From: Candidatus Nomurabacteria bacterium
GTDB taxonomy: Bacteria; Patescibacteriota; Minisyncoccia; Phycocordibacterales; UBA5272
Length of the DNA stretch: 64,000 bases
Assembly (NCBI GenBank): GCA_028286645.1
Contig: JAQBRF010000004.1
Coordinates: 337,536-401,535 of the forward strand
Direction: 5' to 3'
Shown here in pieces: positions 3,450-44,381 of the stretch (position 1 is its first letter; every line of letters starts with the position of its first letter). The notes under the pieces were generated by a model, which made no database searches, was not told the origin of the DNA, and worked only from the letters and a program-made list of their open reading frames with translations. A program made the translations under genes and the position numbers.

Positions 3450-4010
3450 TTAGAGTCGTTCTTCTACATTATGCCAATCGATGTATGACATAAACGCATT
3501 CACATAATCCGCCCTCTTTAGTCCGTAATCAATCATAAAAGCATGCTCAAATACATCCATTACAAGCAGCGGTGTTGCCCCAGCTAAATGGCCCGTATCA
3601 TGCTCATTAATCCATACGTTAAATAATTTTCCCGTTGATTTATCATGAGCGAGTATCACCCACCCTATTCCTCGAATCATTCCCATCCCTACGAATTCCT
3701 TTTGCCAATTTTCAACCGAACCCCAGCATTCTTCAATTTTTTTCTTAAGAGTTCTGTCGCTTAATTGCACTCCTCCTTTTACCATATTTCCAAAATAAAG
3801 TTCATGAAGTCTCATGCCATTCCATTCCCATCCGAATCTTCGATGAAGTTCATTAAATTCAGGAGATCCTGGTTCACAAGTTTTCATTAAATCAGCCAGC
3901 TTATTCGTATTCGTCACATATCCCTGATAAAGAGTGAAGTGATTATTAAGTAGTGTGTCACTAAATCCTGGAATCCCAAGCAGACTTGAAAAGTCTTTTG
4001 CTGTGTACAT
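3450..4010 (-). CDS. Fe/Mn superoxide dismutase
   Basis: C-terminal DVFEHAFMIDYGLKRADYVNAFMSYIDWHNV, close to the SOD signature D-x-W-E-H-[STA]-[FY]2. Length of 186 aa fits. Confidence 0.8.
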   Translation of the reverse strand: MYTAKDFSSLLGIPGFSDTLLNNHFTLYQGYVTNTNKLADLMKTCEPGSPEFNELHRRFGWEWNGMRLHELYFGNMVKGGVQLSDRTLKKKIEECWGSVENWQKEFVGMGMIRGIGWVILAHDKSTGKLFNVWINEHDTGHLAGATPLLVMDVFEHAFMIDYGLKRADYVNAFMSYIDWHNVEERL

Positions 4011-4040
4011 ATTATTTATATTTAATTTATAATCTTCTCC

Positions 4041-5366
4041 CTATGATTCAATTTTCTTTACATATTTCTCTGCAATTTCTTTCATGGCCATAACTAGATC
4101 ATTCATATCTTTTTTTGCAGTTGTTCTTCCCAGAGTTATTCGGAGATTTTCTTTCGCCGCCATCTCACTTTCTCCTAAAGAAATTATAACATAACTCCCA
4201 TCGGTCTCAGAAGATGCACACGCAGATTTATGTGAAATAGCAAACCCTTTTGCGTCCAATCGCAAAATCATCTCCTCGCTCGTTATCCCTGGTATGCGGC
4301 AGTTAATATTATTGGGCAACCGGAGTTCAGAGTGTAGTGCGTAGAGTGTAGCGTGTAGACTTTCTCCCACTTTCCACTTTCCACTTTCTACTAACTGCGG
4401 GATATCGACTCTCGACTTATAGATATCCCATGCTCCATAAAACTTTATAGCGGGAATTTCTTTTTCTGCTTTCTCCTTAAAATAATCTCGCAGCTCCCTT
4501 AATCTTTCGGACTCTGTTTCTCTTAGCCTCACCGCTTCTTCTAAAGCAATAGAGAAAGCATACGCCGAAGATGCATCTTCTGTGCCGCTTCTTAAACCTC
4601 TTTCCTGTCCGCCTCCATGAACTATCGGATCAACTTTTATTCCTTCTCTTTTATAAAGAAGCGCAATGCCTTTAGGCCCATATACCTTGCTAGAATTTAC
4701 TGTAATCATGTGGGCTCGAAGCCTTACGACGTCTAAACTTAAATAGTTTCCTGCTTGGCACGCGTCGGTGTGAAAGTATGGATAAGACGTGAATGTTTTT
4801 CCATTTTCTTTTTTCCATTCGTCCAGTGCTCTTCCGATTTCTTTTATCGGCTGAATAGTTCCGATCTCGTTATTCGCATACATCACACTTACTAAAATAG
4901 TTTCAGGGGTCAGCGCTTCTTTAAAATCATTTAATTTAACTATTCCATCTTCATATGTTTTTAAATAAGTAACATTCACGAGCCGCTTCTTTTCTAAAAA
5001 CCTAATTGCTTCTAATACTGCAGGATGCTCTATTTCAGTAGTAATAATATGCGGAACTTTTCCCGGATTATCTTTTATAAAAGATTCATACGTTCCAAGG
5101 ATCGCCAAATTACAGCTCTCGGTTCCGGAACCTACAAAATATATTTCATATGCATGAGCGTTAAGTAATCGTCCGCATATTGCTCGTGCTTTATCTAAAA
5201 GAAGCCCTGATTGAACTCCTTCCTTATGAATTCCGGATGGATTCCCATAAATTAAAGATGAAACCCGAAGTGCATTAAGCGCTCCGGAAAATATCGGAGT
5301 AGACCCCGCGTGATCTAAATACACTCTGCTCACTTTCTTATTAAAAAAATTTGCGAGAAAATTCAT
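4041..5366 (-). CDS. cysteine desulfurase (IscS/NifS class V aminotransferase) with repeat-encoded loop insertion
   Basis: PLP-lysine motif SSKVYGPKGIALLY. Active-site HKSACASSETDGSYVI. About 35 extra residues (ESGKWKVGESLHATLYALHSELR) are encoded by the tandem DNA repeats 'cactttccactttccactttc' and 'gtgtag...' at 4321-4400. Confidence 0.8.
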   Translation of the reverse strand: MNFLANFFNKKVSRVYLDHAGSTPIFSGALNALRVSSLIYGNPSGIHKEGVQSGLLLDKARAICGRLLNAHAYEIYFVGSGTESCNLAILGTYESFIKDNPGKVPHIITTEIEHPAVLEAIRFLEKKRLVNVTYLKTYEDGIVKLNDFKEALTPETILVSVMYANNEIGTIQPIKEIGRALDEWKKENGKTFTSYPYFHTDACQAGNYLSLDVVRLRAHMITVNSSKVYGPKGIALLYKREGIKVDPIVHGGGQERGLRSGTEDASSAYAFSIALEEAVRLRETESERLRELRDYFKEKAEKEIPAIKFYGAWDIYKSRVDIPQLVESGKWKVGESLHATLYALHSELRLPNNINCRIPGITSEEMILRLDAKGFAISHKSACASSETDGSYVIISLGESEMAAKENLRITLGRTTAKKDMNDLVMAMKEIAEKYVKKIES

Positions 5367-5400
5367 AACATTAATCCTACAGTAAGAAAATACTTTTTAC

Positions 5401-5435
5401 AAAATAAAAAACCCAGGCCCGCGAGGACCTGGGTT
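5401..5435 (-). terminator. rho-independent terminator ending the minus-strand small-peptide locus
   Basis: Minus strand reads ACCCAGG...CCTGGGT followed by TTTTTTATTTT. Confidence 0.7.
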
Positions 5436-5617
5436 TGCGAGATAACCTCTCGCGTTGGTGGCTTCCATGGGTGGGAGCCGGGTAGACGCGAAACCGTCTG
5501 TCGCGGCGCGAGGGGCGTTCCCACGCGCAAGCGCACATCGATGACGCGAATATTAGAACAGGCACCTAAGCCCGCAAGGCTCAGCCATTGCGGGCCAGCT
5601 GGCGCCGGCTTGGTTTT

Positions 5618-5791
5618 CTACGCCGCGCTGCCGGGCGAGTCGCCCGGATTGCCACCGGCGATGTGAGCATCGCCCACGGACGCACCGCTTCCGGACGGGG
5701 CGCCTTCGTGGTTCGTCGTCGGATTAGTCGCAGAGATCGTCGTACCAGTGTGGAGCTGCATGGCCATAAGCTGCGGAGGTTCTCGATACAT
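5618..5791 (-). CDS. small Gly/Ser/Thr-rich peptide, paralog 1 (57 aa)
   Basis: Translation MYREPPQLMAMQLHTGTTISATNPTTNHEGAPSGSGASVGDAHIAGGNPGDSPGSAA. GAGGAA lies 6 nt upstream. The last ~30 nt are identical to paralog 2. Confidence 0.5.
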   Translation of the reverse strand: MYREPPQLMAMQLHTGTTISATNPTTNHEGAPSGSGASVGDAHIAGGNPGDSPGSAA

Positions 5792-5904
5792 CGTTGTTCC
5801 TCATAGAGAGTTTATCAAGATGATACAGAAAGAAGCATACCACCTACACCTTCTTTGTCAATGGTGAAAAAATGAATGATTTTTAGACTCAAATATAAAA
5901 AAAG

Positions 5905-5945
5905 ACTACCCCGTACTGCTTGTACTGCTAGGGTAGTCGTTGGGG
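5905..5945 (-). terminator. intrinsic terminator between peptide paralogs 2 and 1
   Basis: Minus strand GACTACC...GGTAGTC followed by TTTTTTTA. An extra GC hairpin GACGGGGCgattGCCCCGTC lies at 5951-5970. Confidence 0.55.
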
Positions 5946-6048
5946 TTACTGACGGGGCGATTGCCCCGTCAGGTATTTCGGCACGCAGCCGGCGCGCAAT
6001 GGCTAAGCCATGGACGCGCGCGGGCTAGCCGGCGCCGAGCTTCGAGCT

Positions 6049-6234
6049 TTACGTCGCGTTGCCGGGCGAGTCGCCCGGATTGCCACTGTCGACGCCGAGC
6101 GCGGTGTGCTGGCCGGAACTCATCTTCGCATTGGTGCCGCCGTCGTGGCGCACGCCGCCGCTCGAGCTCGCCATCGCATGATTTGCAGAGGTATTCGTTG
6201 CACCGAGCTGTTGGCCGATCGATTTCAATTTCAT
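6049..6234 (-). CDS. small Gly/Ser/Thr-rich peptide, paralog 2 (61 aa)
   Basis: Translation MKLKSIGQQLGATNTSANHAMASSSGGVRHDGGTNAKMSSGQHTALGVDSGNPGDSPGNAT. AAAGGAA RBS lies 7 nt upstream. Confidence 0.55.
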   Translation of the reverse strand: MKLKSIGQQLGATNTSANHAMASSSGGVRHDGGTNAKMSSGQHTALGVDSGNPGDSPGNAT

Positions 6235-6294
6235 CGTAGTTCCTTTCGTTGTTTGGAAGGCGTTTTAGAAGACTGCTGTTGCGGTACTTCTACC

Positions 6295-6363
6295 TTACGC
6301 ACGGCTATTGTCCTTCCGTTGCACCGATCGTGATGAGCCGACGAGTTTTGTTTCTTTACTCAT
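6295..6363 (-). CDS. 22-aa micro-ORF (MSKETKLVGSSRSVQRKDNSRA) with GAGGAA RBS
   Basis: ATG with GAGGAA 5 nt upstream, lying between paralogs 3 and 2. May be a leader peptide or chance. Confidence 0.2.
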   Translation of the reverse strand: MSKETKLVGSSRSVQRKDNSRA

Positions 6364-6472
6364 CGGTTCCTCGTCGCGGCGGAAGGCTACTCGTCGCCGA
6401 GAGTCTTCGCCGCGCCGATCGCGTGCCCGCCGTCGCCGACCTTGGCGATGTTGTACTTCGCGAAATGCCTGC

Positions 6473-6646
6473 TCACTTCGATGCCCTGGTCGCGCCGGCG
6501 CGGTGGAATCCAGTGTTGCCCGCGGCGATCGAGGTGTCGACGAAGTCGTGCTTCTTGCTGCTGTTGTGATTGCGGCTTTTAGCGGCCACTTCGTGGCCCA
6601 TGGAACCGCGCGCCTTGTCCGGCTTTTCGTGCAGACTGCTGGTCAT
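6473..6646 (-). CDS. small Gly/Ser/Thr-rich peptide, paralog 3 (57 aa)
   Basis: Translation MTSSLHEKPDKARGSMGHEVAAKSRNHNSSKKHDFVDTSIAAGNTGFHRAGATRASK. GGAGGT RBS lies 5 nt upstream of the ATG. The ORF-track start at 6667 is a GTG. Confidence 0.5.
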   Translation of the reverse strand: MTSSLHEKPDKARGSMGHEVAAKSRNHNSSKKHDFVDTSIAAGNTGFHRAGATRASK

Positions 6647-6730
6647 GTGCACCTCCGTGTTTGCCACCCTTTCGAGCGGCGGGTTGGAAAGCTTTCGATT
6701 TCTACCTTGCTTAGTAGTTCATCTTGAATC

Positions 6731-6782
6731 CTACCACCGCCTCAAAACTTGTCAAGTGGGTAAAATCCGGTGGTAGATCTAC
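6731..6782 (-). promoter_or_regulatory. putative promoter (-35 TTGACA) embedded in operator-like inverted repeats
   Basis: TACCACCG...CGGTGGTA 8-bp inverted repeat flanks a minus-strand TTGACA. The perfect palindrome GGTAGATCTACC overlaps it. Located upstream of peptide paralog 3. Confidence 0.4.
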
Positions 6783-6824
6783 CTATTTTTGCCCCCTAAT
6801 TATTAACGGAGGGAAAATAAAAAA

Positions 6825-6912
6825 ACCGATTCCCCCTCCCTAATTACAAAACGTGTAATTAGGGAGGGGTCATCAGTTTATGGGTCAGCTCGGGGATCAC
6901 CCCGAGCTGACC
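6825..6912. repeat. two adjacent perfect hairpins (15-bp and 13-bp stems)
   Basis: CCCTCCCTAATTACAaaacgtTGTAATTAGGGAGGG and GGTCAGCTCGGGGatcacCCCCGAGCTGACC. The TAATTA/GGGAGGG motif also occurs at 6793. Confidence 0.6.
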
Positions 6913-7020
6913 TCTTGCGGCTCCCTTGCAGCCTTAGCTGCTTGCCGACCATCTTGAACACCTTAAGTGTGTCAATATCATGATTCTTTGTCAATTACTT
7001 ATCCCCAGCAAAATTGTAGA

Positions 7021-7242
7021 AGCAGCTTGGCTGCGAAGATACCGGAAGCTAACGAGCTGTAGGTCCTGAAGCGGCAGCTGAAGGGCTGAGCGCGAATGTG
7101 TCGAGGAGTGAGAACGACGAAGGTACTGAGCAGAGTACTGCGAATGTGTTGACGAACGGAGGTGAGGAAATACTGAACATAGCAATGTGAATGTGCAACC
7201 GAGCGCGAGCGAGGACGTATTGAGCGCAGAGGCGCGAAATGC
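7021..7242. repeat. left copy of long-range inverted repeat; contains three degenerate ~50-nt tandem units
   Basis: Motifs agcagcttggctgcgaagat, gcgaatgtg and tactgaacatagcaatgtgaatgtgc recur as the reverse complement at 21326-21480. Confidence 0.7.
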
Positions 7243-7745
7243 TAAAATTGTTAAATAATTTTATGTCTTCCTATTTCGGCTATGTAACCCACTACCCATC
7301 AATCGCACTTTCAGTTGCTTTAATTATTGTTCTTATTTATACGATATATTTACATTTAAAAATACATAAGTTCACCAGCGGAGAATCAGGAATATCTTTA
7401 GAATCAATAATTAAGAAAAATATTGAAAGCGCCGAACAGATTAAAAAGACCAACGAACTAATTCTAGAGCATTCCGAATTGTTAGATAAAAAAGTGTCTC
7501 ATTCCATAAGAAATGCAAAAGTAATTCGCTATAAAGCATTTGAATCTCATGGATCTAATCAAAGTTTTTCTGTAGCACTACTAAATGAGGAAGGAAATGG
7601 GGTGATCATAACTTCCCTTCATTCAAATGATCGAATAAACACATTTGCAAAACCTATAGAAAAATATAAAAGTTCATATGATCTTACAGAAGAAGAGATA
7701 CAGGTAATAAACGAGAGCAAGAAGGAGCATGGAATTAGTGGATAG
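7239..7745 (+). CDS. hypothetical N-terminally anchored protein
   Basis: 168-aa ORF with one N-terminal TM helix. AT-rich host-like composition. Confidence 0.5.
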   Translation: MLKLLNNFMSSYFGYVTHYPSIALSVALIIVLIYTIYLHLKIHKFTSGESGISLESIIKKNIESAEQIKKTNELILEHSELLDKKVSHSIRNAKVIRYKAFESHGSNQSFSVALLNEEGNGVIITSLHSNDRINTFAKPIEKYKSSYDLTEEEIQVINESKKEHGISG

Positions 7746-7851
7746 CCGTTTGACGATATCAAATGTTTTATGAGTGATATCAACTACTTGCCGCGATCTA
7801 TCGACTAACCTATAAAAAACAAGGGAAACATGGTATAATTGTGCGATAATT

Positions 7852-9369
7852 ATGCCGAAAGAAGAAAAATCAAAGCTTGTTCCTCGTCAGCCGGTAATAG
7901 CAGTACTTGGGCATGTTGATCATGGAAAATCGTCCCTTCTTGACTACATCCGCAAATCAAACGTCGTAGAGAGTGAGGCTGGCGGTATCACACAAAGAAT
8001 CTCAGCATATGAAGTAGAGCACAAGCTAACAGACGGAAGAATAATGCCGATTACTTTCTTAGACACTCCAGGACATGCGGCATTTCAATCAATGCGCGAA
8101 CGAGGTGTAGAAATTGCCGACTTAGCGATATTGATGGTTTCTGCTGAAGACCAGGTGAAAGCTCAAACACTAGAAGCGTGGAAAACTATTGCTGAAAATA
8201 AACTCCCCTTTGTCGTTGCTATAAATAAGATAGACAAACCAGGTGCGGATATTCAAAAGACAAAAAACTCTCTTGTAGAGAATGGAATTTATATTGAAGG
8301 ATATGGAGGTGAAATTCCCTGCGTTGAAATAAGCGCGAAAACTGGCCAAGGAATAGACTTTCTTCTTGAAACCCTCATTCTTTTAGTTGAAGTAAACGAA
8401 CTTAAAGCCGATTTGTCGAAAAACGCTTCAGGATTTGTACTTGAAAGTTTCGTAGATCAAAAGCGAGGTATTTCTGCCAGCTTAATAATAAAAGATGGAA
8501 CGCTTCCACCAAGCGGGGCGATCTTAGCCGGCACTGCGATGTCGCCTATCAGGATAATAGAAAACTTCCGAGGATTACTCATAAAGGAACCACACGCCGG
8601 CCAGCCTATTAAAGTTACAGGCTTCGATGAATCTCCTATCGCCGGAGCAATTTTCATAAGTTCGAAAGATAAAAAAGAAATAGAAAAAGCTAGAGAAGAA
8701 GCGAAAGGAAATGAAGTTAAGGAAATAGCAGTAGACCCGAAAGTATACAGAAATGCAAAGGTTGTTGTTCCGGTAATAGTTAAAGCTGATTCTCTAGGAA
8801 CGCTTTCAGCTGTTATACAAGAATTAATGAAGAGAGAAACAGAAGATATAAAAATAAAGATAATTCATCAAGGGATAGGAACTATTACTGAAGGAGATTT
8901 AATGTCTGCATCATCTGATGAAAAAGTAGTAGTAATCGGCTTTGGAGTAAAAGTAGAACCGATGGCTCTCGTCCAGGCTGAAAGATTTAATGTGGTTCCA
9001 CAGATATTTGATATCATTTATAAACTATCCGAATGGTTTGATACTGTAATAGAAAGCCGCCTGCCTTACGAAGAAAAGGAAAATATTTTAGGTACATTAA
9101 AGATAATAAGAACCTTCAGCTCTCAAAAAGATAAGCATGTTATCGGGGGCCACGTAGAAACTGGAAAAATAAAAATAGATGCGGTGGTTAAAATTAGTCG
9201 TCGCGGTGTTGAATTGGGAAGAGGAAAAGTTATCGAGCTTCAATCCCAGAAAATTAAGGTTGATCTAGTAAATGAGGGAAATGATTGCGGTCTGCAAGTC
9301 GAAAGTAAAATCGATATGGTTCCCAATGATATATTGACTGCAGTTGAAATTGAGAAGATGAAAATCTAA
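7852..9369 (+). CDS. infB: translation initiation factor IF-2 (short form)
   Basis: G-domain motifs VLGHVDHGKSSLLD, DTPGHAAF and NKIDK. Followed by rbfA. Confidence 0.85.
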   Translation: MPKEEKSKLVPRQPVIAVLGHVDHGKSSLLDYIRKSNVVESEAGGITQRISAYEVEHKLTDGRIMPITFLDTPGHAAFQSMRERGVEIADLAILMVSAEDQVKAQTLEAWKTIAENKLPFVVAINKIDKPGADIQKTKNSLVENGIYIEGYGGEIPCVEISAKTGQGIDFLLETLILLVEVNELKADLSKNASGFVLESFVDQKRGISASLIIKDGTLPPSGAILAGTAMSPIRIIENFRGLLIKEPHAGQPIKVTGFDESPIAGAIFISSKDKKEIEKAREEAKGNEVKEIAVDPKVYRNAKVVVPVIVKADSLGTLSAVIQELMKRETEDIKIKIIHQGIGTITEGDLMSASSDEKVVVIGFGVKVEPMALVQAERFNVVPQIFDIIYKLSEWFDTVIESRLPYEEKENILGTLKIIRTFSSQKDKHVIGGHVETGKIKIDAVVKISRRGVELGRGKVIELQSQKIKVDLVNEGNDCGLQVESKIDMVPNDILTAVEIEKMKI

Positions 9370-9439
9370 TCCAGAGTCGATGGTCATGGGTCAGCACCAT
9401 CGACATTCGACTATCAGCTATCGACCATTTATACATATT

Positions 9440-9823
9440 ATGAAAGTAGAAGCAAATAAACCACAAACAAAAAGACAAATACAAGTCGGTCTTGAAGTTC
9501 TAGCCATCGCTCAGGATTTCTTTCAGCGTGAGTCCTCAGGATCTTCTATGATCACAGTCACACGAGCTGAAGTATCCGGAGACATGAAACATGGAACTAT
9601 TTTTATAACAGTGCTTCCAGAAAGCAAGGAAGAATCTGCAATTAACTTCGCCAAAAGAATGAGAAGCGATCTTAGACACGCTATTATGAAAAGGATGCCG
9701 GTAAAAGTAATACCATTTCTTGAAGTAGAAATTGATTACGGAGAAAAGAATAGACTTCATATAAGCGAACTTTTGAGGAAAAGTGGTGGCACTACTGCAG
9801 AAGCTTCGGACTTACCTAAATAA
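9440..9823 (+). CDS. rbfA: ribosome-binding factor A
   Basis: ITVTRAEVSGDMKHGTIFITV matches the RbfA core. Classic infB-rbfA linkage. The ORF-track start at 9380 is probably upstream of the real ATG. Confidence 0.75.
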   Translation: MKVEANKPQTKRQIQVGLEVLAIAQDFFQRESSGSSMITVTRAEVSGDMKHGTIFITVLPESKEESAINFAKRMRSDLRHAIMKRMPVKVIPFLEVEIDYGEKNRLHISELLRKSGGTTAEASDLPK

Positions 9824-9917
9824 ACAACTTTTGACAAAAGTAGTATTGTAATGCAGAATATGGATGAGTTTCACTTTGTAACCTACAAAGTGAATTTGAA
9901 CACAAAGGAGTCATTGA

Positions 9918-10742
9918 ATGAATCAGTCTCTGGTGAAAGAAAGCTCGCAAAGTGAATCTCGTGGACTCTCATCGTCGGAGCGGGATACACTCATTCTCCT
10001 TTTCGATCCCGCTGTGGACGATGAGAGAAAGATCGGACTTTCCTTTTCGCTGGGAGAGGGAGCTGCGAAGCTTCATCTCCGCACGGAGCGAAATGAGAAA
10101 GGCCATCCGCTCATCAAGGTGACTGGGGTGGATTCTGGGCACGATTTCAACCCTTTAATGGTCGGAGTGTACTTATTCTTCGCCCACCTTATCTCAGACC
10201 GTGTGCCGGAAAAGATCATGGGGAGACCTTCTCGTCTCAGGAAATATCTGCGCAATCTGTACACGCTTTACGGCGACACCACGCGGCCGCATCTGTCACC
10301 AGTTGCGACTCCTCCAACGAAACCCGAAACCCACAAAAGGATGCCGCTCCCAGTGAAGGCTCCAACGGCGCCGGTAAAAAAAGCGGCGGTCTTGCAGAAA
10401 GCTTCGCGAATTAACAGAAGCGAGTATGCAGAGTTCGGCGAAAGCTCCAACCTGTCGATGCCTGGCAAGCACCAGCTACTGGCAAGAGGCGAGAATGGGT
10501 ATGCATATGTCCGAAGCGACGGGAGCATCGTCACTCTGGATGGCGCGGATGAAGGGAATACGCTTTACGGGTTAACGATCGGATGCAAGATATCCGTTCG
10601 AGAGCTCTCGAATCGAAACCCCGCTTCTGTGTTCGATGCAGAGCCGCGCCGTGGGCTGGAAATCGGCAAGTTCTACAAGTACCTGTGTCAATTCCATCCG
10701 GAAGTCCCCATTGAGCGCCCAAAGCTTCCGTGGGAAAAATAG
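9918..10742 (+). CDS. GC-rich hypothetical protein (274 aa)
   Basis: AAAGGAG RBS 7 nt upstream. GC-clamped terminator immediately downstream. No recognisable motif. Confidence 0.6.
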   Translation: MNQSLVKESSQSESRGLSSSERDTLILLFDPAVDDERKIGLSFSLGEGAAKLHLRTERNEKGHPLIKVTGVDSGHDFNPLMVGVYLFFAHLISDRVPEKIMGRPSRLRKYLRNLYTLYGDTTRPHLSPVATPPTKPETHKRMPLPVKAPTAPVKKAAVLQKASRINRSEYAEFGESSNLSMPGKHQLLARGENGYAYVRSDGSIVTLDGADEGNTLYGLTIGCKISVRELSNRNPASVFDAEPRRGLEIGKFYKYLCQFHPEVPIERPKLPWEK

Positions 10743-10767
10743 GGTCGAGCTTTTTCACTTTAGCAAT

Positions 10768-10800
10768 CCCCCGGCATCATGTCGGGGCTTTTTCTTTTCT
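10768..10800 (+). terminator. rho-independent terminator
   Basis: CCCCGGCatcatGTCGGGG followed by CTTTTTCTTTTCT. Confidence 0.7.
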
Positions 10801-11029
10801 CAAATAAAAAACACCCATCGCGGGTATCTTTTACTTTATAAGTGAAACCTCTCTGTTTTTAACGAAGTGCTCGGCATTATTATACGACTGAATCAATAAA
10901 AAATTTGGGTCATTCGTATTAACTTTACCGGTTTGAAGCATCTTCTTACTTACCTAGACGGTAAAGAATCATAAATCTTACATCTCTCGCAAAAAGCCAA
11001 GAATTAAGATATAATCACTTCTGTTCACA

Positions 11030-11110
11030 CCTGCCCCGGTGGCGAAATTGGCAACAGAACAAATGCGCTAAGTGCGTCTACCAATTTCGTAAGTACATAG
11101 GGAGGTGAGA
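11030..11110 (+). pseudogene. tRNA-Leu 5' fragment plus fold-back (pseudo-tRNA / att remnant)
   Basis: 'tgccccggtggcgaaattggcaacag' copies tRNA positions 1-26. It is followed by 'agtgcgtctaccaatttcg', the inverse of the D-arm. No complete cloverleaf forms. Confidence 0.5.
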
Positions 11111-11137
11111 TAAAAGAGAGTAAAAATTAAATATTTG

Positions 11138-11221
11138 CCCAGGTGGCGAAATTGGTAGACGCACTTGCCTTAGGAGCAAGCGCCGCAAGGCATGAAGGTT
11201 CAAGTCCTTTCCTGGGCACCT
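11138..11221 (+). tRNA. tRNA-Leu (anticodon TAG)
   Basis: Acceptor GCCCAGG/CCTGGGC. Anticodon stem-loop ACTTGC-CTTAGGA-GCAAG. Long variable arm (type II). Confidence 0.85.
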
Positions 11222-12825
11222 AATAATACATTTTGGTCCGCAAGCGTATCAAAAGGTGTATTAAACGTTGATTTGTATACCTTTTTATCTTTTATATAAA
11301 AGTTCAAGAAGATCTTTTTAAGGAAGAAGTCTAGTTCTTCCATATTCTTGATAGAAGCTAGTGTTTTAGGCATATTTTCCATTAGTTCAATGAACTTTTC
11401 AAAAGTTAAAATGCTTACTTTATCATTTTCGTAAATTATCCTAGTTTTCTTCTCGTCTTCTTCTATTAAATTAATATCTCTTTCAGCTTTTTCTAGATCT
11501 CCTCTATAAAACTTCTTAATGTTTTCTGCTTCGTCGCTTAAAAGGAGATTCTTTGTCTTCTCTATCTTTTCTTCGGCTCTAACCTTTTCGGTTCGCAACG
11601 TCAAAAGTTTTTCCTTTGCTTGATTAATACGGTCTGAATGTACTTTTTTTATTTCCTTTGTATAGTGCTCATAACTTCTTTTACTAGAAAATGGTTTCTT
11701 TTCTAAAAGGTGGTATATGTAATCTAAAATTACTTTAGCTCTTATAGATTTTCCATATCTAGGACAATCACGATTATCACACCTATAGTAAAAATATCTT
11801 ATTGTGCCTTTTTTAGTTTTTTTAGCAGTTATTCCTGCTTGCAAAGATTCTCCACATTCGCAAATTACAGCGTCTCTTAAAAGACTTGCTATTATGTCCT
11901 CTCCTTTTCTATAGTTTCGAGCAAGTTTAAGTAAATCTTTATTTCCAGATAGTCTATTAATCTGCATAAATTCTTCTGTGGTTACCATAGGAATAAAATC
12001 GTAATATTCCATTAAGTTAACTACATTTTCTCCATATTGGAGTACCCCAGTATAAACAGGATCTCTTAAAATATATTGGACCCTCTGTTTGTTCATTGTA
12101 AAGAATCTTTCTGACGATTCCGTATTGCTATGAAAATATTTATTACTTATAAGATACTCAGAAATCTGGTCCAAAGTTTTGCCTTCCAATCTCATTTGGA
12201 AGCCTTGCTTCAGTAATACATAATTATTTCCGTCTGGACGTAAATAACCGTTTTTATCTTTTATATAACCGTGTTTAGAGATATTTACATATTTACCTTC
12301 TGCAAGACTTAACCTATTCCCTCTTTTAACATTGACACTTAATTTATCTGAATATTCCTTTGAGAGAGCAAACATAATTCCTAGGAGCAACTTACCGCTT
12401 GCGTCATTACTAAATGTAAAACTTACAAACTTTAAATCTTTGATTATGTCCTTATCAACTAGATCTATAACCTCTCCCGCCTCTTTCATATTTCTTGCTA
12501 GTCTGTCCGGGTGCCACGCGATAACCCCGTCATATTTACTAGCACTTATATCAAGAAGCATTTTAGTAAACTTAGGCCTTATTCCTGGCTCTTTAGCACT
12601 TTCTGCTTCCTCTATTATATCTGCAAACTTAAGTTCATTCTTTCTTGCGAAATCCCTGCATTCCGTGATTTGATCCTCAATGGAACGTATTTGTTTACCG
12701 GTCTCGTCGGTTGACTTTCTTACGTAAATAACATACTTATACTTTTCGGGAGTATATGCCACTTTGTCGTTCTGGGCCGATTTTAGTAACTCCAAAAGTT
12801 CTTGTGGAGAAGTAGGATTAAACAT
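11200..12825 (-). CDS. large serine recombinase (integrase)
   Basis: N-terminal resolvase domain YVIYVRKSTDETGKQIRSIEDQ with the catalytic Ser. 541 aa, with a Cys-containing zinc-ribbon region and a coiled-coil C-terminus. The 3' end overlaps the tRNA-Leu 3' end. Confidence 0.8.
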   Translation of the reverse strand: MFNPTSPQELLELLKSAQNDKVAYTPEKYKYVIYVRKSTDETGKQIRSIEDQITECRDFARKNELKFADIIEEAESAKEPGIRPKFTKMLLDISASKYDGVIAWHPDRLARNMKEAGEVIDLVDKDIIKDLKFVSFTFSNDASGKLLLGIMFALSKEYSDKLSVNVKRGNRLSLAEGKYVNISKHGYIKDKNGYLRPDGNNYVLLKQGFQMRLEGKTLDQISEYLISNKYFHSNTESSERFFTMNKQRVQYILRDPVYTGVLQYGENVVNLMEYYDFIPMVTTEEFMQINRLSGNKDLLKLARNYRKGEDIIASLLRDAVICECGESLQAGITAKKTKKGTIRYFYYRCDNRDCPRYGKSIRAKVILDYIYHLLEKKPFSSKRSYEHYTKEIKKVHSDRINQAKEKLLTLRTEKVRAEEKIEKTKNLLLSDEAENIKKFYRGDLEKAERDINLIEEDEKKTRIIYENDKVSILTFEKFIELMENMPKTLASIKNMEELDFFLKKIFLNFYIKDKKVYKSTFNTPFDTLADQNVLLGAQERT

Positions 12826-13148: not shown

Positions 13149-13560
13149 AACTCAAAGTTAATCATTGCGTTGGCATTACATTGTTCGTTATTAGATTTTT
13201 TGAATATACATTTCATAAGTTATTGCTTGTAAATTAGCTTTTAAGATCTGAATAAATTGGTATGATTTGAGGTCATAATCAAACGAAAAACGGACCTGAA
13301 CTTACTTATCCCGTGAGATAGCTTGTTCAGACCCGTGAATCTGTCTAGCTTTTTATAACTAGCTTTGTTTTCCCTGGACCATATCTTAAGGCTTTTTCAA
13401 GATTAGGGTCGATCAGTAAAACTATTTGATTATCTTAAGTGTAGCTTATATTCATATCTTGTAAATTGCTTATATTTCTTACGAGAGAATAATAAGATAT
13501 ACTTGCATTACAACTAAATATATTAGTGGCCTAACCCCTAAGCAATTAGAGTATGGTCCA

Positions 13561-13700
13561 AATCGCGACAAACATAAAAAACCTATCATTAGGGCGTTTG
13601 TCGCGGTATACCGGGAAACTGGTATACAGGCCTTCGGGCCTTCCTAGTGGTAGGCTTTTTCTGTCTCCACTTAGATTTATAAATTAAACGCGACAAACAA
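13561..13700 (+). promoter_or_regulatory. three copies of 'cgcgacaaac' (two direct, one inverted) up to the start codon
   Basis: aatCGCGACAAACat ... gGCGTTTGTCGCGg ... aaaCGCGACAAACaatttATG. A UUCG-tetraloop hairpin (aggccTTCGggcct) lies in the same region. Confidence 0.4.
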
Positions 13701-14950: not shown

Positions 14951-15388
14951 TTATCTTGCCATTACCACTCTTGGTTCTCCGTCCCCAAAGTAATCTTCTT
15001 TTCTCGATTCAATTTTAAATCCTAGAGATTCATAAAGGCTAATTGCTTTAAAGTTATCTGGGTGTGTTACAAGATCTATCCTTTTTACTTCTCCTATTTC
15101 CTTTAAGATATAATCCATAGCTTGCCTTGCTATTCCTTGTCTCTGAAACTCTGGAAGGATTAATATTCCACTTATATAAGCGTGGTCCGGCGATTTCATT
15201 TCATACATTACGTCACCTGCTATCTTACTGTCTTTCTCAATAATATAAACCGGTCCGTCATTTATGGCTTTTATCCATTCGGATTCCTCAAGCATTGCAG
15301 AATAAGTTTTAGATCCTACAATACTTTGCTCTATAGAGATAAGAGTAGGAATATCTTCAATTATTGCTTTTTTATATTTAAGTTCCAT
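14951..15388 (-). CDS. GNAT family N-acetyltransferase
   Basis: Motif A YISGILILPEFQRQGIARQAMDYIL and the AISLYESLGFK tail. 145 aa. Ends 3 nt before the CDPS start. Confidence 0.8.
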   Translation of the reverse strand: MELKYKKAIIEDIPTLISIEQSIVGSKTYSAMLEESEWIKAINDGPVYIIEKDSKIAGDVMYEMKSPDHAYISGILILPEFQRQGIARQAMDYILKEIGEVKRIDLVTHPDNFKAISLYESLGFKIESRKEDYFGDGEPRVVMAR

Positions 15389-19570: not shown

Positions 19571-20167
19571 CTACTTCTCTTTTCTTCTGCCGATTAAAAA
19601 ATAAAACACGGTACCGATTAATGCCCCTATTGTATCCATAAGCATATCCTTCTGAGCGTCCCAAATATCTCCTTGAGACCCTAGGACTGCAATTCCTGCG
19701 CCAGGATCCGAACTAACTGCATATTGCCATTCAAATATTTCATAAAATGCAGCCACCGCCGGAATAATCATAAAGCCTGCTAAATATGCGAACCATTTTT
19801 TATTTACCCATCTGTACTTAATGGCAGATTCAATAATAGGATACGCATAAAACCCCACCGTTGCATGAGCTACCCTGTCATACATATTTCTTTCGAAACC
19901 GAAAAAATTATCAAACCAATCAAATGGAACAGCGGCAAAAGTATAATGCCCCCCAATGGTGTGCATAAATATAAGGATACTCATTAATAAATATGCAATA
20001 TTTGAAAATCTTATTTTTGCAATATATAAACCTATGATAACCGCAACAATTAGAAGAACTGTTAAATTCTCCACCCACCAAGTATGCCTATCTATCGGAT
20101 GAATCCCCAAGGCGACAAATTCTACTGCATAAATTAGCAAAAGAAGATGCGGGAAATATTTTTTCAT
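19571..20167 (-). CDS. polytopic membrane protein, paralog A
   Basis: About 45-50% identical to ORF 21442-22071, for example YFPHLLLLIY, FDWFDNFFGF and KKWFA. Confidence 0.6.
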   Translation of the reverse strand: MKKYFPHLLLLIYAVEFVALGIHPIDRHTWWVENLTVLLIVAVIIGLYIAKIRFSNIAYLLMSILIFMHTIGGHYTFAAVPFDWFDNFFGFERNMYDRVAHATVGFYAYPIIESAIKYRWVNKKWFAYLAGFMIIPAVAAFYEIFEWQYAVSSDPGAGIAVLGSQGDIWDAQKDMLMDTIGALIGTVFYFLIGRRKEK

Positions 20168-20218: not shown

Positions 20219-20692
20219 TCAAGCCGCATCGCCGCATTGGGCTTTGGCAGCTTCCACTGTTCGCTGAAATTCTTCGCGACTCATGTCATCGCCAACAAGC
20301 CCTGGAGCCCACTCGAACGGCTTAGGGTCAGCCGCTAGGACCGCGTTGAATTCTTCCCTGGTCAGTATCTGGTTGGGAATACTTTCTGACCGTTCGAGTT
20401 CGTTTACCGCTGGATACGCGATGCTGAGCTCGTGGTTCAGAAAAAAATGCATCGAGCTCACCCGTGCCTTTCTCAGCGTCATGAGTTTCCATACATCGGT
20501 GATAAGCTCGAGATCCGGAGTAAGCACTACGTTTCTCGTCCCTTTGAATAAGGCGGGGAAAGTCCCCATGAGCCCATGCTCGAGCTCCAGGAAGTAGACC
20601 ACCGTAGGCACGAACCCTGCCACTTTGCCGTCCTGCAATTCTTTCAGTGTTGCTGGAACTTTACTTCTGAGATCATCGTTTCGTATGCCCAT
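20219..20692 (-). CDS. GC-rich hypothetical protein
   Basis: GGAGGAAAA RBS before the ATG (MGIRNDDL). The ORF-track start at 20767 lies upstream of the RBS. Confidence 0.5.
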   Translation of the reverse strand: MGIRNDDLRSKVPATLKELQDGKVAGFVPTVVYFLELEHGLMGTFPALFKGTRNVVLTPDLELITDVWKLMTLRKARVSSMHFFLNHELSIAYPAVNELERSESIPNQILTREEFNAVLAADPKPFEWAPGLVGDDMSREEFQRTVEAAKAQCGDAA

Positions 20693-20848
20693 TTTTCCTC
20701 CGCACGTAACGTCTCGGGAGATATCCTGAGACCGTTTGATGCGGACGAATCTGCTCCATCTAACCATTTTAAGTATTTTTAGTCAATCTATTGATATGGG
20801 TGATACTCCGACAAATCTTTTCACTCAATTAAAAATAGATTTTTAATT

Positions 20849-21325: not shown

Positions 21326-21480
21326 TAATGTAAAACTATTCTAGCACATTCACATTAGTATGTTCAGTACGTCTTCACTTGCGTTCAGTTGCACATTCGC
21401 GCTGCTGCGCTCAGTATTTACTCTATCGCGTCCTTCGCTTGTTAGCTACGGACATCTTCGCAGCCAAGCTGCTCCAACAT
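21326..21480. repeat. right copy of long-range inverted repeat (inverted relative to 7021-7242)
   Basis: The revcomp contains agcagcttggctgcgaagat...agctaac...tactgagc...gcgaatgtg...tactgaacatactaatgtgaatgtgc. Confidence 0.7.
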
Positions 21481-22071
21481 ATTTTTCCTATAAACTGACA
21501 AATAAATAATAACACCTAAAATTCCTCCTAGGAAATCCATTAACATATCTTTTGGCGTATCCCAGAAGTCCCCTTGTGAACCCATAAACCCAGCACTAGC
21601 TACTGGGTCAACATTTATTGCGTTAATCCATTCATATATTTCATAAAATGCAGCGATGGCTGTTATAAACATGACGGCAGTAAAACAAGCAAACCACTTT
21701 TTATTTACCGCCTTAAATCTAATTAATACTTCTGTCATTGGATATGCAAGCAGTCCGATTAAAAAGTGTCCCACTCGATCATAGTTATTTCTATGGAAAC
21801 CAAATAAATTATTAAACCAATTAAAGGGCACATTTTCAAACATATAGTGTGCTCCCACTTGGTGCATGTAAAAAAGCCCGAAAATTATTAAATACGAAAT
21901 GTTTGAAAGACGAACATTTTTGATATAAAAAATAATAACAACAAGCACTAGAGGCAGCACGACTGAATTTTCTATAAACCAGACCTCTCTATTTGTAGGA
22001 TTAATCGCAAGCAAAATAAACTCGATTATATATATTAAAAGTAACAGATGGGGAAAGTATTTTTTAAACAT
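21442..22071 (-). CDS. polytopic membrane protein, paralog B
   Basis: Paralog of 19571-20167. Its C-terminal codons lie inside the inverted-repeat copy. Confidence 0.6.
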   Translation of the reverse strand: MFKKYFPHLLLLIYIIEFILLAINPTNREVWFIENSVVLPLVLVVIIFYIKNVRLSNISYLIIFGLFYMHQVGAHYMFENVPFNWFNNLFGFHRNNYDRVGHFLIGLLAYPMTEVLIRFKAVNKKWFACFTAVMFITAIAAFYEIYEWINAINVDPVASAGFMGSQGDFWDTPKDMLMDFLGGILGVIIYLSVYRKNMLEQLGCEDVRS

Positions 22072-23113: not shown

Positions 23114-23557
23114 ATGAACAAACTGTTCGCAAGTATCGTAATTACATTCTGCCTGGCAGCCTGCCAGAGCATCCCACAAACCACCACCCCGGCACAAAAA
23201 ACCGTGCCGACCATGATCACCACAACCAAAGTCCTGGACCTTCTGGACAAGGACGAGGTGGTGATAGTCGACGTACGGCCGAAGCAAGACCGGAAAACCT
23301 TTCCGTCCGCCTACGGGATTCACTATCTTCAATTCGGTCCGACTCAATGGACCGGAAAGATATCCGGAAGGGATGAGGAAAACTTCCTTCGCGCAATCTA
23401 CCCCATCTACGCGGAGGCGGAGGAGGCGGGGAAAATGATCGTCTTGATGTGCGACGAAGGTGTGCGAGCGCGTGTCGCTGCACAGCTGCTTCACAATCAG
23501 GACATGGACGTGTTCTACGCGTCCGATGCCAACATGATTACGCTCATGTACCGCTAA
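23114..23557 (+). CDS. rhodanese-domain lipoprotein (GC-rich)
   Basis: Signal peptide with lipobox LAAC. Rhodanese active-site loop LMCDEGVRARVAA (CxxGxR). Confidence 0.6.
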   Translation: MNKLFASIVITFCLAACQSIPQTTTPAQKTVPTMITTTKVLDLLDKDEVVIVDVRPKQDRKTFPSAYGIHYLQFGPTQWTGKISGRDEENFLRAIYPIYAEAEEAGKMIVLMCDEGVRARVAAQLLHNQDMDVFYASDANMITLMYR

Positions 23558-33699: not shown

Positions 33700-33845
33700 A
33701 AGTTTAATTATTCTAGCACGACTAATATTAATTTTTTTAAATAATCCTTACATCTATTGACTTTCCTTACAAATATGATATAGTTAAGCTAAATGGGCAC
33801 CTGCTCATTGTAATGCTTTACAACGGCTCAAGGAGGCCAATAAAC

Positions 33846-43812: not shown

Positions 43813-44283
43813 CTACCCAGAGAGCTCCCCGTAGTACTCGAACTCACGGTGGAGCTTTTCCGAAAGCGGGAACCTGTTAGTCTGCCCTCGGTCTGGCACC
43901 CGATTTATCTTCGGGTCCCATGCTTGGTATTGCATACGAGAGCCGCTTATCAGGTGTTCTAATGAAAGAACCACCACGTACGGGCTTGAACTTCCTTCCT
44001 TTCTTCTCTTGAGGATCGTGCTCCCGGGCTTGATGACGAACTTCTTCCCGAGGAAACGATAATCCCGCTGGAAGTGAGGCAGAGGATGACGAGCGAGTGA
44101 GCTTGTAGGCTTCACCTCCTGCTTGACCACATCCCATTCGCGAGTGGTGACCTCCCCTCCATACAATTGCTCCGCGTCCGGAGGAAATACCTCCATGACG
44201 AGCACAATACTCTGCGCGCCTGCCACCACTTTCCGATCCAACCACAGATCCTCTACTGCGGGGTTCTGCTTTACCTTTTTCAT
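43813..44283 (-). CDS. GC-rich hypothetical protein, tandem paralog 1
   Basis: Shares WDPKINRVPDRGQTNRFPLSEKLHREFE with paralog 2 (WDLKNNCPQPRGQTNGHPIDERFHKKFK). Confidence 0.5.
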   Translation of the reverse strand: MKKVKQNPAVEDLWLDRKVVAGAQSIVLVMEVFPPDAEQLYGGEVTTREWDVVKQEVKPTSSLARHPLPHFQRDYRFLGKKFVIKPGSTILKRRKEGSSSPYVVVLSLEHLISGSRMQYQAWDPKINRVPDRGQTNRFPLSEKLHREFEYYGELSG

Positions 44284-44329
44284 TGCGAGTACTCCATTGA
44301 ACGTATCATTATTACCCTATCATGCTTTT

Positions 44330-44358: not shown

Positions 44359-44381
44359 CACTTATACGTTGGAGCTTCCAT

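Follow-up and report, generated by a model that had tools for sequence, protein, structure and literature searches.

A GC-rich locus between two housekeeping genes of a Nomurabacteria-like bacterium may encode small hydrophilic proteins in two self-contained transcription units

What does a block of GC-rich DNA encode when it lies between two housekeeping genes of an otherwise AT-rich bacterium? The locus considered here comes from an uncultured CPR bacterium, Paceibacteria- or Nomurabacteria-like, and was analysed within a stretch of 64,000 nucleotides (the window). The surrounding gene order is RbfA, IF-2, DUF4446, the slot that holds the locus, a cysteine-desulfurase-like gene and SOD. GC content is 0.57–0.65 across positions 5400–6750 and 0.31–0.39 in the flanking genes, with a window average of about 40%. 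The initial annotation, which placed the locus far above the flanking housekeeping DNA, was right about this contrast but not if the contrast is taken as peculiar to the locus, since about 15 GC-rich islands occur in the window. An assembly artefact is made unlikely by an independent Logan assembly that is 100% identical over 3502–9914, possibly from the same sample. The three annotated minus-strand ORFs were all found at 5618–5791 (ORF1), 6049–6234 (ORF2) and 6473–6646 (ORF3). Together with a fourth reading frame, termed copy 4, they make up a set of which only ORF1 is called by a public gene caller. With somewhat more belief than doubt, we read the locus as two self-contained minus-strand units that encode lineage-restricted, small, hydrophilic, probably disordered cytoplasmic proteins at a variable syntenic slot.

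The transcription signals define the layout of the locus. Two minus-strand promoters each combine TTGACA, a 16-nt spacer and an extended -10 element (TGg) with 10 of 12 consensus matches; the first (6728–6755) has TAGGAT as its -10 hexamer and the second (5834–5861) has TATGCT. In the 64 kb, where 0.14 occurrences of the arrangement TTGACA-N13-15-TGnTAnnnT would be expected, there are 4, and each precedes a GC-rich unit. The intrinsic terminator region of unit 1 (5897–5972, minus strand) contains, in the MFE fold, a 10-bp hairpin (5972–5949) and then a hairpin at 5938–5904 with T7 at 5903–5897. That of unit 2 (5401–5436, minus strand) consists of a 12-bp stem (hairpin 5436–5409) and a T-run. 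The promoter proposed earlier between copies 2 and 1 is thus present at 5861–5834, as are the internal terminator (hairpin 5938–5904 plus T7) and the terminal one given as 5401–5435 (5436–5409 plus T-run). The view of a single locus has to be given up: the second near-consensus promoter, at 6755–6728, heads the upstream unit, so that the locus divides into two transcription units independent of each other. Unit 1 would run from about 6721 to 5897 and carry ORF3, copy 4 as an overlapping ORF in the -1 frame, and ORF2. Unit 2, from about 5827 to 5401, would carry ORF1 and a 180-nt structured tail. Each is predicted to have its own near-consensus extended -10 sigma-70 promoter and intrinsic terminator.

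This layout raises the question of whether RNA rather than protein is the product. In AT-rich genomes, RNA genes typically stand out as GC-rich islands equipped with strong promoters and terminators, a pattern that the locus fits. Strong structure is predicted for all of its transcripts (z=-4 to -5), which is compatible with a role at the RNA level. The 3' tail of unit 2 (5437–5617, minus strand; GC 0.65) is strongly structured without codon periodicity (p=0.58), and this 180-nt non-coding segment folds at z=-4.8 with the terminator counted in. On this account the units would be genes for structured small RNAs or dual-function RNAs. The peptides would then be incidental or secondary, and a module of about 100 nt, described below, would act in stability, in processing or as a protein-binding site. 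We hold that account to be improbable; the frame-specific GC3 periodicity and codon usage of the ORFs are not expected of a non-coding RNA.

That periodicity is significant and confined to the claimed frames in ORF2 (p=0.005), ORF3 (p=2e-4) and copy 4 (p=4e-5), with GC3 of 0.76–0.93. No GC3 periodicity was found in the spacer, the 3' tail or five ORFs of the plus strand. Of the six frames, a codon log-likelihood model fitted to 15 further GC-rich genes gave the claimed one the top score in each of ORF1, ORF2, ORF3 and copy 4. On 60-codon chunks of its own training genes the model picks the correct frame in 38 of 44 cases, a figure that is not cross-validated. SD-like motifs lie 5–6 nt before the ATG of ORF1 (GAGGA), ORF2 (AGGA) and ORF3 (GGAGG); arbitrary ATGs of the window have one in 11% of cases. 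The statement that each ORF has its own SD is correct for these three. The reading of the minus strand as coding gains support from the GC3 periodicity, the six-frame codon test and the SD/ATG contexts. The plus strand, whose Arg-rich ORFs had been named as the possible refutation of this reading, offers nothing of the kind: in their own frames the five such ORFs have no GC3 excess and negative codon scores, and a search with all five concatenated found no homologue. The minus strand is most probably the coding strand of the locus. The locus most likely encodes tiny unstructured proteins, and the genes look real.

A coding signature of this type could also be inherited. The ORFs may be decaying fragments of coding DNA from a high-GC donor that keep the donor's periodicity without selection, which we regard as unlikely. 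The GC3 of ORF2, ORF3 and copy 4 (0.76–0.93) is far from that of the host core (0.21–0.39, about 0.3), as in recent imports that have not been ameliorated. Periodicity is also weak in ORF1 and absent from the micro-ORF and spacer of unit 1. A relic would not be expected to show what ORF1 to ORF3 show, each starting at ATG with a correctly spaced SD, or promoters and terminators that are AT-rich, near-consensus and of host type, with a statistical link to genes of this class.

ORF3 (57 aa, minus strand) encodes a hydrophilic, basic protein with 5 His; its GC1/2/3 values are 0.52/0.53/0.81 and it scores 0.19 bits/codon in the codon model. Copy 4 (6387–6476, minus strand) is a 29-aa ORF with a GTG start that overlaps the TGA of ORF3 (GTGA) in the -1 frame. 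It had been described as a degenerate fourth copy, but its coding signature is the strongest of the set (GC3 0.93; 0.42 bits/codon) and it has no detectable kinship to ORF1 or ORF2. Copy 4 is either a translationally coupled ORF or the tail of a frameshifted gene of about 86 aa. No slippery heptamer for a programmed -1 frameshift was seen by eye at the junction. The break in frame could come from a frameshift that disabled the gene, a sign of decay, and its position amid a continuous coding-type signal is what a relic would predict. The 22-aa micro-ORF (6295–6363, minus strand) has an SD-like GAGG and falls inside a non-periodic spacer of about 150 nt; with GC1/2/3 of 0.48/0.48/0.48 it shows no periodicity of its own and is probably not a gene.

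ORF1 and ORF2 are the one related pair. ORF1 (57 aa, ATG, minus strand) is a paralogue of ORF2 (61 aa, ATG, minus strand) with a 10-aa N-terminal extension, and BLASTP aligns residues 11–56 of the former with 1–60 of the latter (E=3e-5, shuffle z=6.7). The proposal of three to four paralogous peptides holds for these two but not for ORF3 and copy 4, whose similarity to ORF1/ORF2 is at chance level (shuffle z=0–2; hhalign probability 0.2% and 0.1%, respectively). GC3 of ORF2 is 0.76 overall and 0.83–0.90 in sliding windows, and its predicted tryptic peptides are SIGQQLGATNTSANHAMASSSGGVR and MSSGQHTALGVDSGNPGDSPGNAT. The periodicity of ORF1 is not significant (GC1/2/3 0.62/0.62/0.71, p=0.17; 0.09 bits/codon), and AlphaFold gives it a pLDDT of 57, a pTM of 0.14 and no secondary structure.

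Both ORFs contain a 27-nt block that had been reported as identical in the two copies, and this was confirmed: the 25-nt core of the block, which belongs to repeat family D1, has 2 matches against 0 expected. Upstream (5') of the block the DNA is unalignable (z=0.5), whereas the protein can be aligned in the claimed frame (z=3.3, 2 of 300 shuffles). The N-terminal similarity in this frame is modest, and among the 18 frame pairs tested an antisense pair out of register reached a similar score (z=3.1). Synonymous sites in this region are saturated (pS=0.83) and pN is 0.41, with a null for pN that was used without re-alignment and so overstates its significance. We suggest that ORF1 and ORF2 would be old tandem duplicates whose N-terminal two-thirds have been kept as protein while synonymous sites became saturated. 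The preservation of frame and residues despite that saturation argues against decaying fragments, and this single paralogue pair constitutes the evidence of purifying selection within the locus.

The 3' end of the pair behaves differently. Synonymous differences between ORF1 and ORF2 number 0 of 9 in the block and 11 of 15 upstream (p=6e-4; pS 0.00 and 0.83). The absence of synonymous change in the block, next to saturated sites upstream, indicates gene conversion or a constraint at the nucleotide level, in keeping with the recent duplication or gene conversion suggested for the block. The identity lies in a shared module of about 100 nt on the minus strand, continues for about 65 nt past the stop codons and includes a perfect 17-bp palindrome (repeat I3). 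In unit 1 the module spans 5985–6092 and takes in the last 9–10 codons of ORF2, the stop and a 3' hairpin, with the palindrome at 6062–6078. The unit 2 copy (5575–5661) has its palindrome at 5631–5647, and repeats D1, I1 and I3 fall in both copies. The C-terminal GNPGDSPG that had been taken as conserved across the peptides occurs in two ORFs only, and its identity is at the DNA level and crosses the stop codons. It is primarily part of a nucleotide module and only secondarily a conserved motif of the peptides. The last nine or so codons, the stop and the 3' hairpin may thus reflect either recent gene conversion or a nucleotide-level constraint on the 17-bp palindrome. The mismatches between the block copies are not specific to adenine, which rules out a target or template repeat of a DGR.

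Enterobacteria offer the classic example of tandem paralogues homogenised by gene conversion, their duplicated tuf genes. ORF1 and ORF2 resemble them in having a sharply bounded tract of zero synonymous divergence within otherwise saturated genes. They differ from them in that the tract is only about 30–100 nt long, lies at the 3' end, is centred on a palindrome and extends into a non-coding hairpin.

The module also bears on the idea of an RNA product. The only strongly conserved part of the locus straddles the stop, its core is a perfect palindrome free of synonymous change, and both copies fold into the same architecture of two hairpins, a 7–8-bp GC hairpin and a larger one. The two copies, however, fold with z-scores of only -2.5 and -1.9, and 1 of 25 pairs is compensatory, a count that comes from two sequences. 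No match was found in Rfam 15 at gathering thresholds, and the best matches at E<=10 are at chance level and fall on terminator hairpins only. No further copy of the module was found elsewhere in the 64-kb window or in viral contigs.

The same module could be a palindromic element, REP/MITE-like or attC-like, that inserted into two otherwise unrelated ORFs or provides their 3' ends, with GNPGDSPG as its translation. Similarity peaks in the hairpin-forming module across the stop while the DNA upstream is unalignable, and the palindrome translates to PG[DE]SPG on both strands. We think such an element very unlikely, given the N-terminal protein similarity of ORF1 and ORF2 in the claimed frame and the low copy number, two in the 64 kb with no further one in viral contigs. 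Features of an integron were likewise not found: there is no IntI-type integrase among the scanned ORFs, the units carry their own promoters, unlike integron cassettes, and no RYYYAAC/GTTRRRY core sites were seen by eye. The only recombinase among the scanned ORFs is a large serine recombinase at 11200–12825, about 5.5 kb away.

Searches of large collections returned no relatives of the peptides. A profile of ORF1/ORF2 against 5.8 billion protein clusters and a full HMMER search against 1.84 billion representatives each found only the query itself. A concatenated homology search with ORF3, copy 4 and the micro-ORF gave no match, and scans of metagenome and viral contigs with back-translated DNA gave no homologue. 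The exact 25-mer of the block is absent from viral contigs, and blastn and tblastn found no similarity in plasmid and phage collections. There was no relevant match in Pfam at E<=10 and no match in NCBIfam at E<=1 or in PADLOC; the only PHROGs hit had E=0.21. A full-text literature search returned nothing relevant. The lack of homologues is compatible with decayed import; against it, no donor gene is detectable despite the dense sampling of high-GC bacteria.

The properties of the peptides were compared with those of known small-protein classes. GRAVY is -0.49 for ORF1, -0.66 for ORF2, -0.37 for copy 4 and -1.01 for ORF3; maximal 19-aa hydropathy is 0.06–0.22, net charge runs from -3 to +5 and Gly content is 9–18%. 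As first annotated, the peptides lack both Cys and a signal peptide, and none contains a hydrophobic segment. In being small, Gly-rich, hydrophilic, Cys-free, predicted disordered and without a signal peptide, they resemble hydrophilins and the KGG and CsbD stress proteins. Hydrophilins were reportedly defined by Garay-Arroyo et al. in 2000 by Gly above 6% and a mean hydrophilicity index above 1. All of the peptides reach that Gly content, and ORF3 alone reaches the hydrophilicity. The earlier suggestion of the KGG/CsbD type is not borne out by the profiles, as neither PF10685 (KGG) nor PF05532 (CsbD) was reported by Pfam at E<=10 and the peptides lack KGG or CsbD-type repeats, or by the hydrophilicity of ORF1 and ORF2. 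The suggestion of a toxin or bacteriocin finds no hydrophobic or cationic character in the peptides to build on.

A further suggestion was that the peptides are RiPP precursors, and the wider version of it, in which the genes for maturation and export would lie elsewhere in the genome, also admits bacteriocin-like peptides that stay unmodified. Several small Ser/Thr/Gly-rich ORFs do stand in tandem, and the window encodes secondary metabolism related to peptides, in the form of a cyclodipeptide synthase with a GNAT, as well as an ABC-2 transporter pair. We nevertheless consider this origin extremely improbable. That no modification enzyme is adjacent was already remarked, and the finding extends to the window: a Pfam scan of about 50 of its ORFs, all but about 15 shorter ones, detected no radical-SAM, YcaO, LanB/C/M, ATP-grasp, prolyl-oligopeptidase or peptidase-containing ABC (PCAT) protein, the last being the exporter for double-glycine leaders. 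Precursor and leader families (NHLP, Nif11, lasso, lanthipeptide and others) gave no match in Pfam at E<=10 or NCBIfam at E<=1. The peptides lack Cys and are not cationic, amphipathic or hydrophobic. Conservation between ORF1 and ORF2 is the reverse of a conserved leader with a variable core, with the N-terminus diverged (pN 0.41) and the C-terminus identical at the DNA level. CPR genomes are small and poor in RiPP-type pathways, which also argues against such precursors.

The position of unit 2 upstream of a co-oriented cysteine-desulfurase-like gene recalls a leader-peptide attenuator, with a promoter, a small ORF, structured RNA and a terminator. Unlike an attenuator leader, ORF1 is 57 aa long and its stop lies about 180 nt before the terminator; moreover, the slot ORFs of relatives show no detectable relation to it. 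The desulfurase also has a promoter-like element of its own directly after the terminator, conserved as TATGATAGAGTA in all relatives and present in the window as TTGTAA-17 nt-TAGGAT. An attenuator for the desulfurase is rejected on these three grounds.

Comparison of the slot among relatives places the locus in a wider context. Scans of genomes and metagenomes for the flanking desulfurase for closer syntenic relatives gave only relatives of 60–65% identity. None of the slot genes in these relatives resembles the peptides of the window (best E about 5), a comparison that used slot-ORF queries other than those of L004 and L006 together with a complete reciprocal tblastn of the peptides against the loci. 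The relatives' slot ORFs are nonetheless GC3-elevated over their own genomes (0.43–0.93 vs 0.12–0.47), and one of them evolves as a protein, with 7, 10 and 25 differences at the three codon positions. A slot occupant that is GC-elevated whatever the GC of its host, and in one case clearly under purifying selection, is a further argument against relics of a high-GC donor.

The same combination of traits recurs within the window. Of 20 island ORFs, 7 have a strong promoter of their own and 13 a terminator of their own; among 45 core ORFs the counts are 4 (p=0.026) and 6 (p=5.5e-5). Of the island proteins tested, 9 of 10 have no Pfam family, and a second paralogous island pair lies at 43813–44885. 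The two units would therefore seem to us members of a window-wide class of genes that are GC-rich, mostly family-less, equipped with their own promoter and terminator and placed between AT-rich core operons. They resemble the orphan small-protein genes of CPR and metagenome data in being short and family-less, with their own SD and promoter, a variable position and local tandem paralogues. They differ from the usual orphan genes in having GC and GC3 above the host core, in their tie to extended -10 promoters and terminators, and in the putative conversion tract of ORF1/ORF2 that spans the stop codon.

We infer that the ORFs are translated, that their products are disordered and that they have an accessory role with fast turnover. 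Our best guess is that they are small disordered proteins present in large amounts, which would bind other molecules or buffer them in connection with stress or host interaction, rather than substrates for modification. By themselves they would add a few more orphan small ORFs to an uncultured bacterium, and their significance would be modest. If translated, they would form a small-protein family without known relatives in the CPR, a lineage whose biology has mostly been deduced from genome sequences and in which small proteins are routinely missed (1 of the 4 ORFs here is called automatically). More interesting than the peptides is their context: in this window, compositionally distinct, family-less genes are statistically tied to strong promoters and terminators of their own, and GC-rich accessory genes run against the usual rule of AT-rich accessory DNA. 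It is a doubtful extension that genomes of the Paceibacteria type of CPR carry a hitherto undescribed, genome-wide class, with this locus as one example, of GC-rich genes, most without a known family and each joined to a near-consensus extended -10 promoter and a terminator, that turn over at fixed slots and are GC3-elevated whatever the GC of the host. If true, this would point to GC-biased gene conversion on recombining cassettes or to dedicated cassette exchange, not to random import from one high-GC donor, and the palindrome-centred conversion tract of ORF1 and ORF2 would be a footprint of that cassette process.

The locus lies on the minus strand of DNA from an uncultured CPR/Patescibacteria bacterium, in a 1.87 kb gap between a cysteine-desulfurase-like gene (4041-5366, minus strand) and a divergent DUF4446 gene (7239-7745). 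The window is ordinary housekeeping DNA, with genes for RNA polymerase beta/beta', sigma-70, primase, Obg, GatB, MiaA, topoisomerase I, DprA, RelA/SpoT, ParB, IF-2, RbfA, and SOD. GC content is 0.57-0.65 across 5400-6750 versus 0.31-0.39 in neighboring genes, in agreement with the GC-rich island described in the initial annotation. The ORFs proposed there were found exactly in place, and ORF1 (5618-5791), ORF2 (6049-6234), and ORF3 (6473-6646) each carry the expected SD-like motif 5-6 nt upstream of the ATG, compared with a background of 11% among arbitrary ATGs. Scans recovered the claimed internal promoter at 5861-5834 and the terminal terminator at 5436-5409; a hairpin at 5938-5904 with a run of seven T behind it forms the internal terminator. 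The promoter scan also places a second promoter, of equal quality, at 6755-6728, which is absent from the earlier description. With promoters at 6755-6728 and 5861-5834, the locus therefore comprises two independent minus-strand units. Unit 1 contains ORF3, a short ORF previously described as a degenerate fourth copy ("copy 4", 6387-6476), a spacer with a micro-ORF (6295-6363), and ORF2, and unit 2 contains ORF1 and a 180-nt tail.

The coding strand is the minus strand, as had been claimed, and periodicity and codon usage agree on this point. In a GC frame plot, enrichment at the third codon position is strong and specific to frame: it follows ORF3 and then the copy-4 frame, is lost in the spacer, and returns in the frame of ORF2. 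GC at codon positions 1/2/3 is 0.52/0.53/0.81 for ORF3 (p=2e-4), 0.60/0.43/0.93 for copy 4 (p=4e-5), 0.55/0.56/0.76 for ORF2 (p=0.005), and 0.62/0.62/0.71 for ORF1, where the excess is not significant (p=0.17). The micro-ORF is flat, and no excess is present in the 3' tail or in any of the five plus-strand ORFs. A log-likelihood model of codon usage, built from 15 further GC-rich genes in the window and comparing six frames, ranks the claimed frame first for ORF1, ORF2, ORF3, and copy 4 (0.09, 0.21, 0.19, and 0.42 bits per codon), and all five plus-strand ORFs are negative in their own frame. Applied, without cross-validation, to 44 chunks of 60 codons from the genes it was trained on, the model chose the right frame 38 times. 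A plus-strand homolog was sought as a refutation of minus-strand coding, and a search with the plus-strand ORFs concatenated found none.

The proposal of three to four paralogs holds only for ORF1 and ORF2, which are related to one another (BLASTP E=3e-5; shuffle z=6.7). It does not extend to ORF3 and copy 4, whose scores do not exceed those of composition-matched shuffles (z=0-2) and which reach hhalign probabilities of 0.2% and 0.1%, respectively, against the ORF1/ORF2 profile. Nor is copy 4 degenerate, since no other ORF here shows as strong a coding signal. Copy 4 is in the -1 frame relative to ORF3, its GTG overlapping the TGA of the latter (GTGA), and across the junction each of the two frames stays open and rich in GC3. 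The overlap may reflect translational coupling, or else a former gene of ~86 aa that has been frameshifted; reading the sequence by eye revealed no slippery heptamer.

At the DNA level the two units resemble each other mainly within a module of ~100 nt that begins 27 nt upstream of the stop codon and runs ~65 nt past it into a hairpin. The reported 27-nt identical block is real (2 matches versus 0 expected), and a perfect 17-bp palindrome, CCGGGCGA-C-TCGCCCGG, forms the core of the module. The DNA of the two units cannot be aligned upstream of the module (z=0.5), but the claimed protein frame can (z=3.3; 2 of 300 shuffles); we grade this in-frame similarity as moderate evidence because one off-register antisense frame pair, among 18 pairs tested, reached 3.1. 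Synonymous codons differ at 11 of the 15 residues shared by both proteins upstream versus 0 of 9 in the block (p=6e-4). Nei-Gojobori estimates in the block are pS=0.00 and pN=0.11. Upstream they are pS=0.83 and pN=0.41, the latter set against a null that is generous because it involved no re-alignment. Most simply, ORF1 and ORF2 would descend from an old tandem duplication, in which similarity would have been maintained at the protein level, and their 3' ends were probably homogenized later, and recently, by gene conversion. The conserved GNPGDSPG peptide motif would then be a 3' gene-conversion tract taken for a peptide motif. The palindrome or hairpin may also serve a function at the nucleotide level. 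The two module copies fold alike into a two-hairpin shape, but with z of only -2.5 and -1.9, and two sequences are too few to reveal covariation. As an account of the locus, an RNA-level function seems unlikely, and Rfam gave no match. A palindromic repeat element is more improbable still; additional module copies occur neither elsewhere in the window nor in viral contigs.

Searched against 5.8 billion protein clusters and, with full HMMER, 1.84 billion representatives, a profile of ORF1 and ORF2 matched nothing but ORF1 itself. Homology searches with ORF3, copy 4, and the micro-ORF found no matches, nor did back-translated scans of metagenome and viral contigs. Plasmid and phage collections yielded none in DNA or protein, and Pfam, NCBIfam, PHROGs, and PADLOC gave no meaningful match. 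One Logan contig is 100% identical to window positions 3502-9914 and contains the exact proteins. The peptides have GRAVY values of -0.49 to -1.01 and 9-18% Gly, with no Cys and no hydrophobic window, and AlphaFold, run with a two-sequence alignment, predicts no secondary structure (mean pLDDT 57, pTM 0.14). Our reading of the locus, with modest confidence, is that it most likely encodes genuine small proteins, disordered and restricted to the lineage, expressed from two autonomous units. The functions suggested initially fared poorly. The KGG/CsbD assignment lacks a profile match, and ORF1 and ORF2 fall outside the hydrophilin hydropathy range; a toxin or bacteriocin role is at odds with peptides of neither hydrophobic nor cationic character. 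RiPP precursors combine a conserved leader with a variable core, whereas these peptides show the reverse pattern, and a Pfam scan of ~50 window ORFs found no maturation or dedicated export gene. The closest to RiPP-type genes are a cyclodipeptide synthase with a GNAT (14.2-15.4 kb) and an ABC-2 pair (58.7-60.2 kb). RiPP or bacteriocin precursors are thus a very remote prospect.

The cyclodipeptide synthase (PF16715; 14172-14948, minus strand) is followed by the GNAT acetyltransferase (14951-15388, minus strand). A LOOT RNA (RF03000, 65 bits; 13528-13642, plus strand) lies ~530 nt from the synthase gene and may be an RNA motif tied to a small secondary-metabolite operon.

The closest relatives of the desulfurase are only 60-65% identical and come from MAGs labeled Candidatus Paceibacterota and Nomurabacteria. 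Synteny is conserved (RbfA, IF-2, DUF4446, slot, desulfurase, SOD), and the slot between DUF4446 and the desulfurase is in every case occupied by a co-oriented, self-contained unit of varying identity. The corresponding regions L003, L005, and L008 encode an 89-aa protein, and L004, L006, and L007 encode Gly-rich proteins of 145-153 aa, with signal-peptide-like beginnings in L004 and L006. None has detectable similarity to the window peptides. The 89-aa occupant evolves as a protein, judging from its codon-position differences (7/10/25). Slot-occupant GC3 exceeds that of its own genome in each relative (0.43-0.50 versus 0.12-0.39; 0.93 versus 0.40-0.47 in L006). In L006, a 49% GC genome, the slot contains two ORFs, one of 149 aa that looks secreted (4420-4869, GC3 0.93) and a further small one that has an SD of its own (4994-5203). 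The window is therefore not alone in having a multi-unit slot or extreme GC3.

We also considered a leader-peptide attenuator for the co-oriented desulfurase gene, and rejected it: the ORF1 stop lies ~180 nt ahead of the terminator, ORFs in the same position are unrelated in relatives, and the desulfurase gene retains its own promoter-like element just 3' of the terminator. This element is TTGTAA-17 nt-TAGGAT in the window, and in all relatives a conserved TATGATAGAGTA occupies the place (extended -10, TGaTAGAGT; L003 ~5646-5657, L004 ~1139-1150, L005 ~4729-4740, L006 ~5224-5235, L007 ~595-606, L008 ~4848-4859). In the relatives it directly follows the slot-unit terminator, 10-30 nt upstream of the desulfurase start, and the 5' leader would therefore be very short or absent.

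Just upstream of the locus is a third short minus-strand unit (6812-6965, fold z=-8.9) that looks like an sRNA or tiny gene. Besides a perfect hairpin of 13 bp (6883-6912) and a long terminator hairpin (6823-6879) with a T-run, it contains a 24-aa basic ORF and a box, ATTGACAAAGAA, that recurs at the promoter of unit 2; no -10 box could be recognized with conviction. The plus strand at 7000-7240, 5' of the DUF4446 gene, is strongly purine-rich and contains the repeat GCGAATGTGT(C/T)GA(G/C)GA at 7092-7107 and 7140-7155.

Gene GC3 across the window is bimodal, with core genes at 0.21-0.39 and about 20 island ORFs at 0.49-0.67 (for example 9918-10742, 23114-23557, 33813-34979, 43813-44885, 48323-48868, 56274-56756, and 58104-58559). 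Nine of ten island proteins tested lack a Pfam family. Relics of imported GC-rich DNA are a minority explanation for the locus. The architecture common to both locus promoters, TTGACA-N13-15-TGnTAnnnT, occurs 4 times in 64 kb versus 0.14 expected, and the remaining two sites are also directly 5' of GC-rich orphan ORFs. Near-consensus promoters of their own precede 7/20 island versus 4/45 core ORFs (p=0.026), and 13/20 versus 6/45 have their own intrinsic terminator (p=5.5e-5); these p-values are nominal, from a mechanical ORF set with a GC3 cut-off (0.47) picked after viewing the distribution. An adjacent pair of GC-rich orphan paralogs (43813-44283 and 44382-44885, both minus; BLASTP E=1e-8) is a second local tandem duplication within this gene class. 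Elsewhere, a GC-rich orphan ORF (20219-20767) and tRNA-Leu(taa) lie between DUF2238 membrane-protein paralogs (19571-20167 and 21442-22071, both minus). The ORF at 9918-10742 adjoins a large serine recombinase (11200-12825, minus; Resolvase, Recombinase, and Zn ribbon domains) that abuts or overlaps tRNA-Leu(tag) (11137-11220), and 9918-12825 may be an element integrated at the tRNA gene.

The single locus alone is of modest interest. An AT-rich genome with GC-rich accessory genes reverses the usual pattern, and what merits follow-up is a class of GC-rich orphan genes tied to their own strong promoters and terminators, in slots that turn over between relatives.
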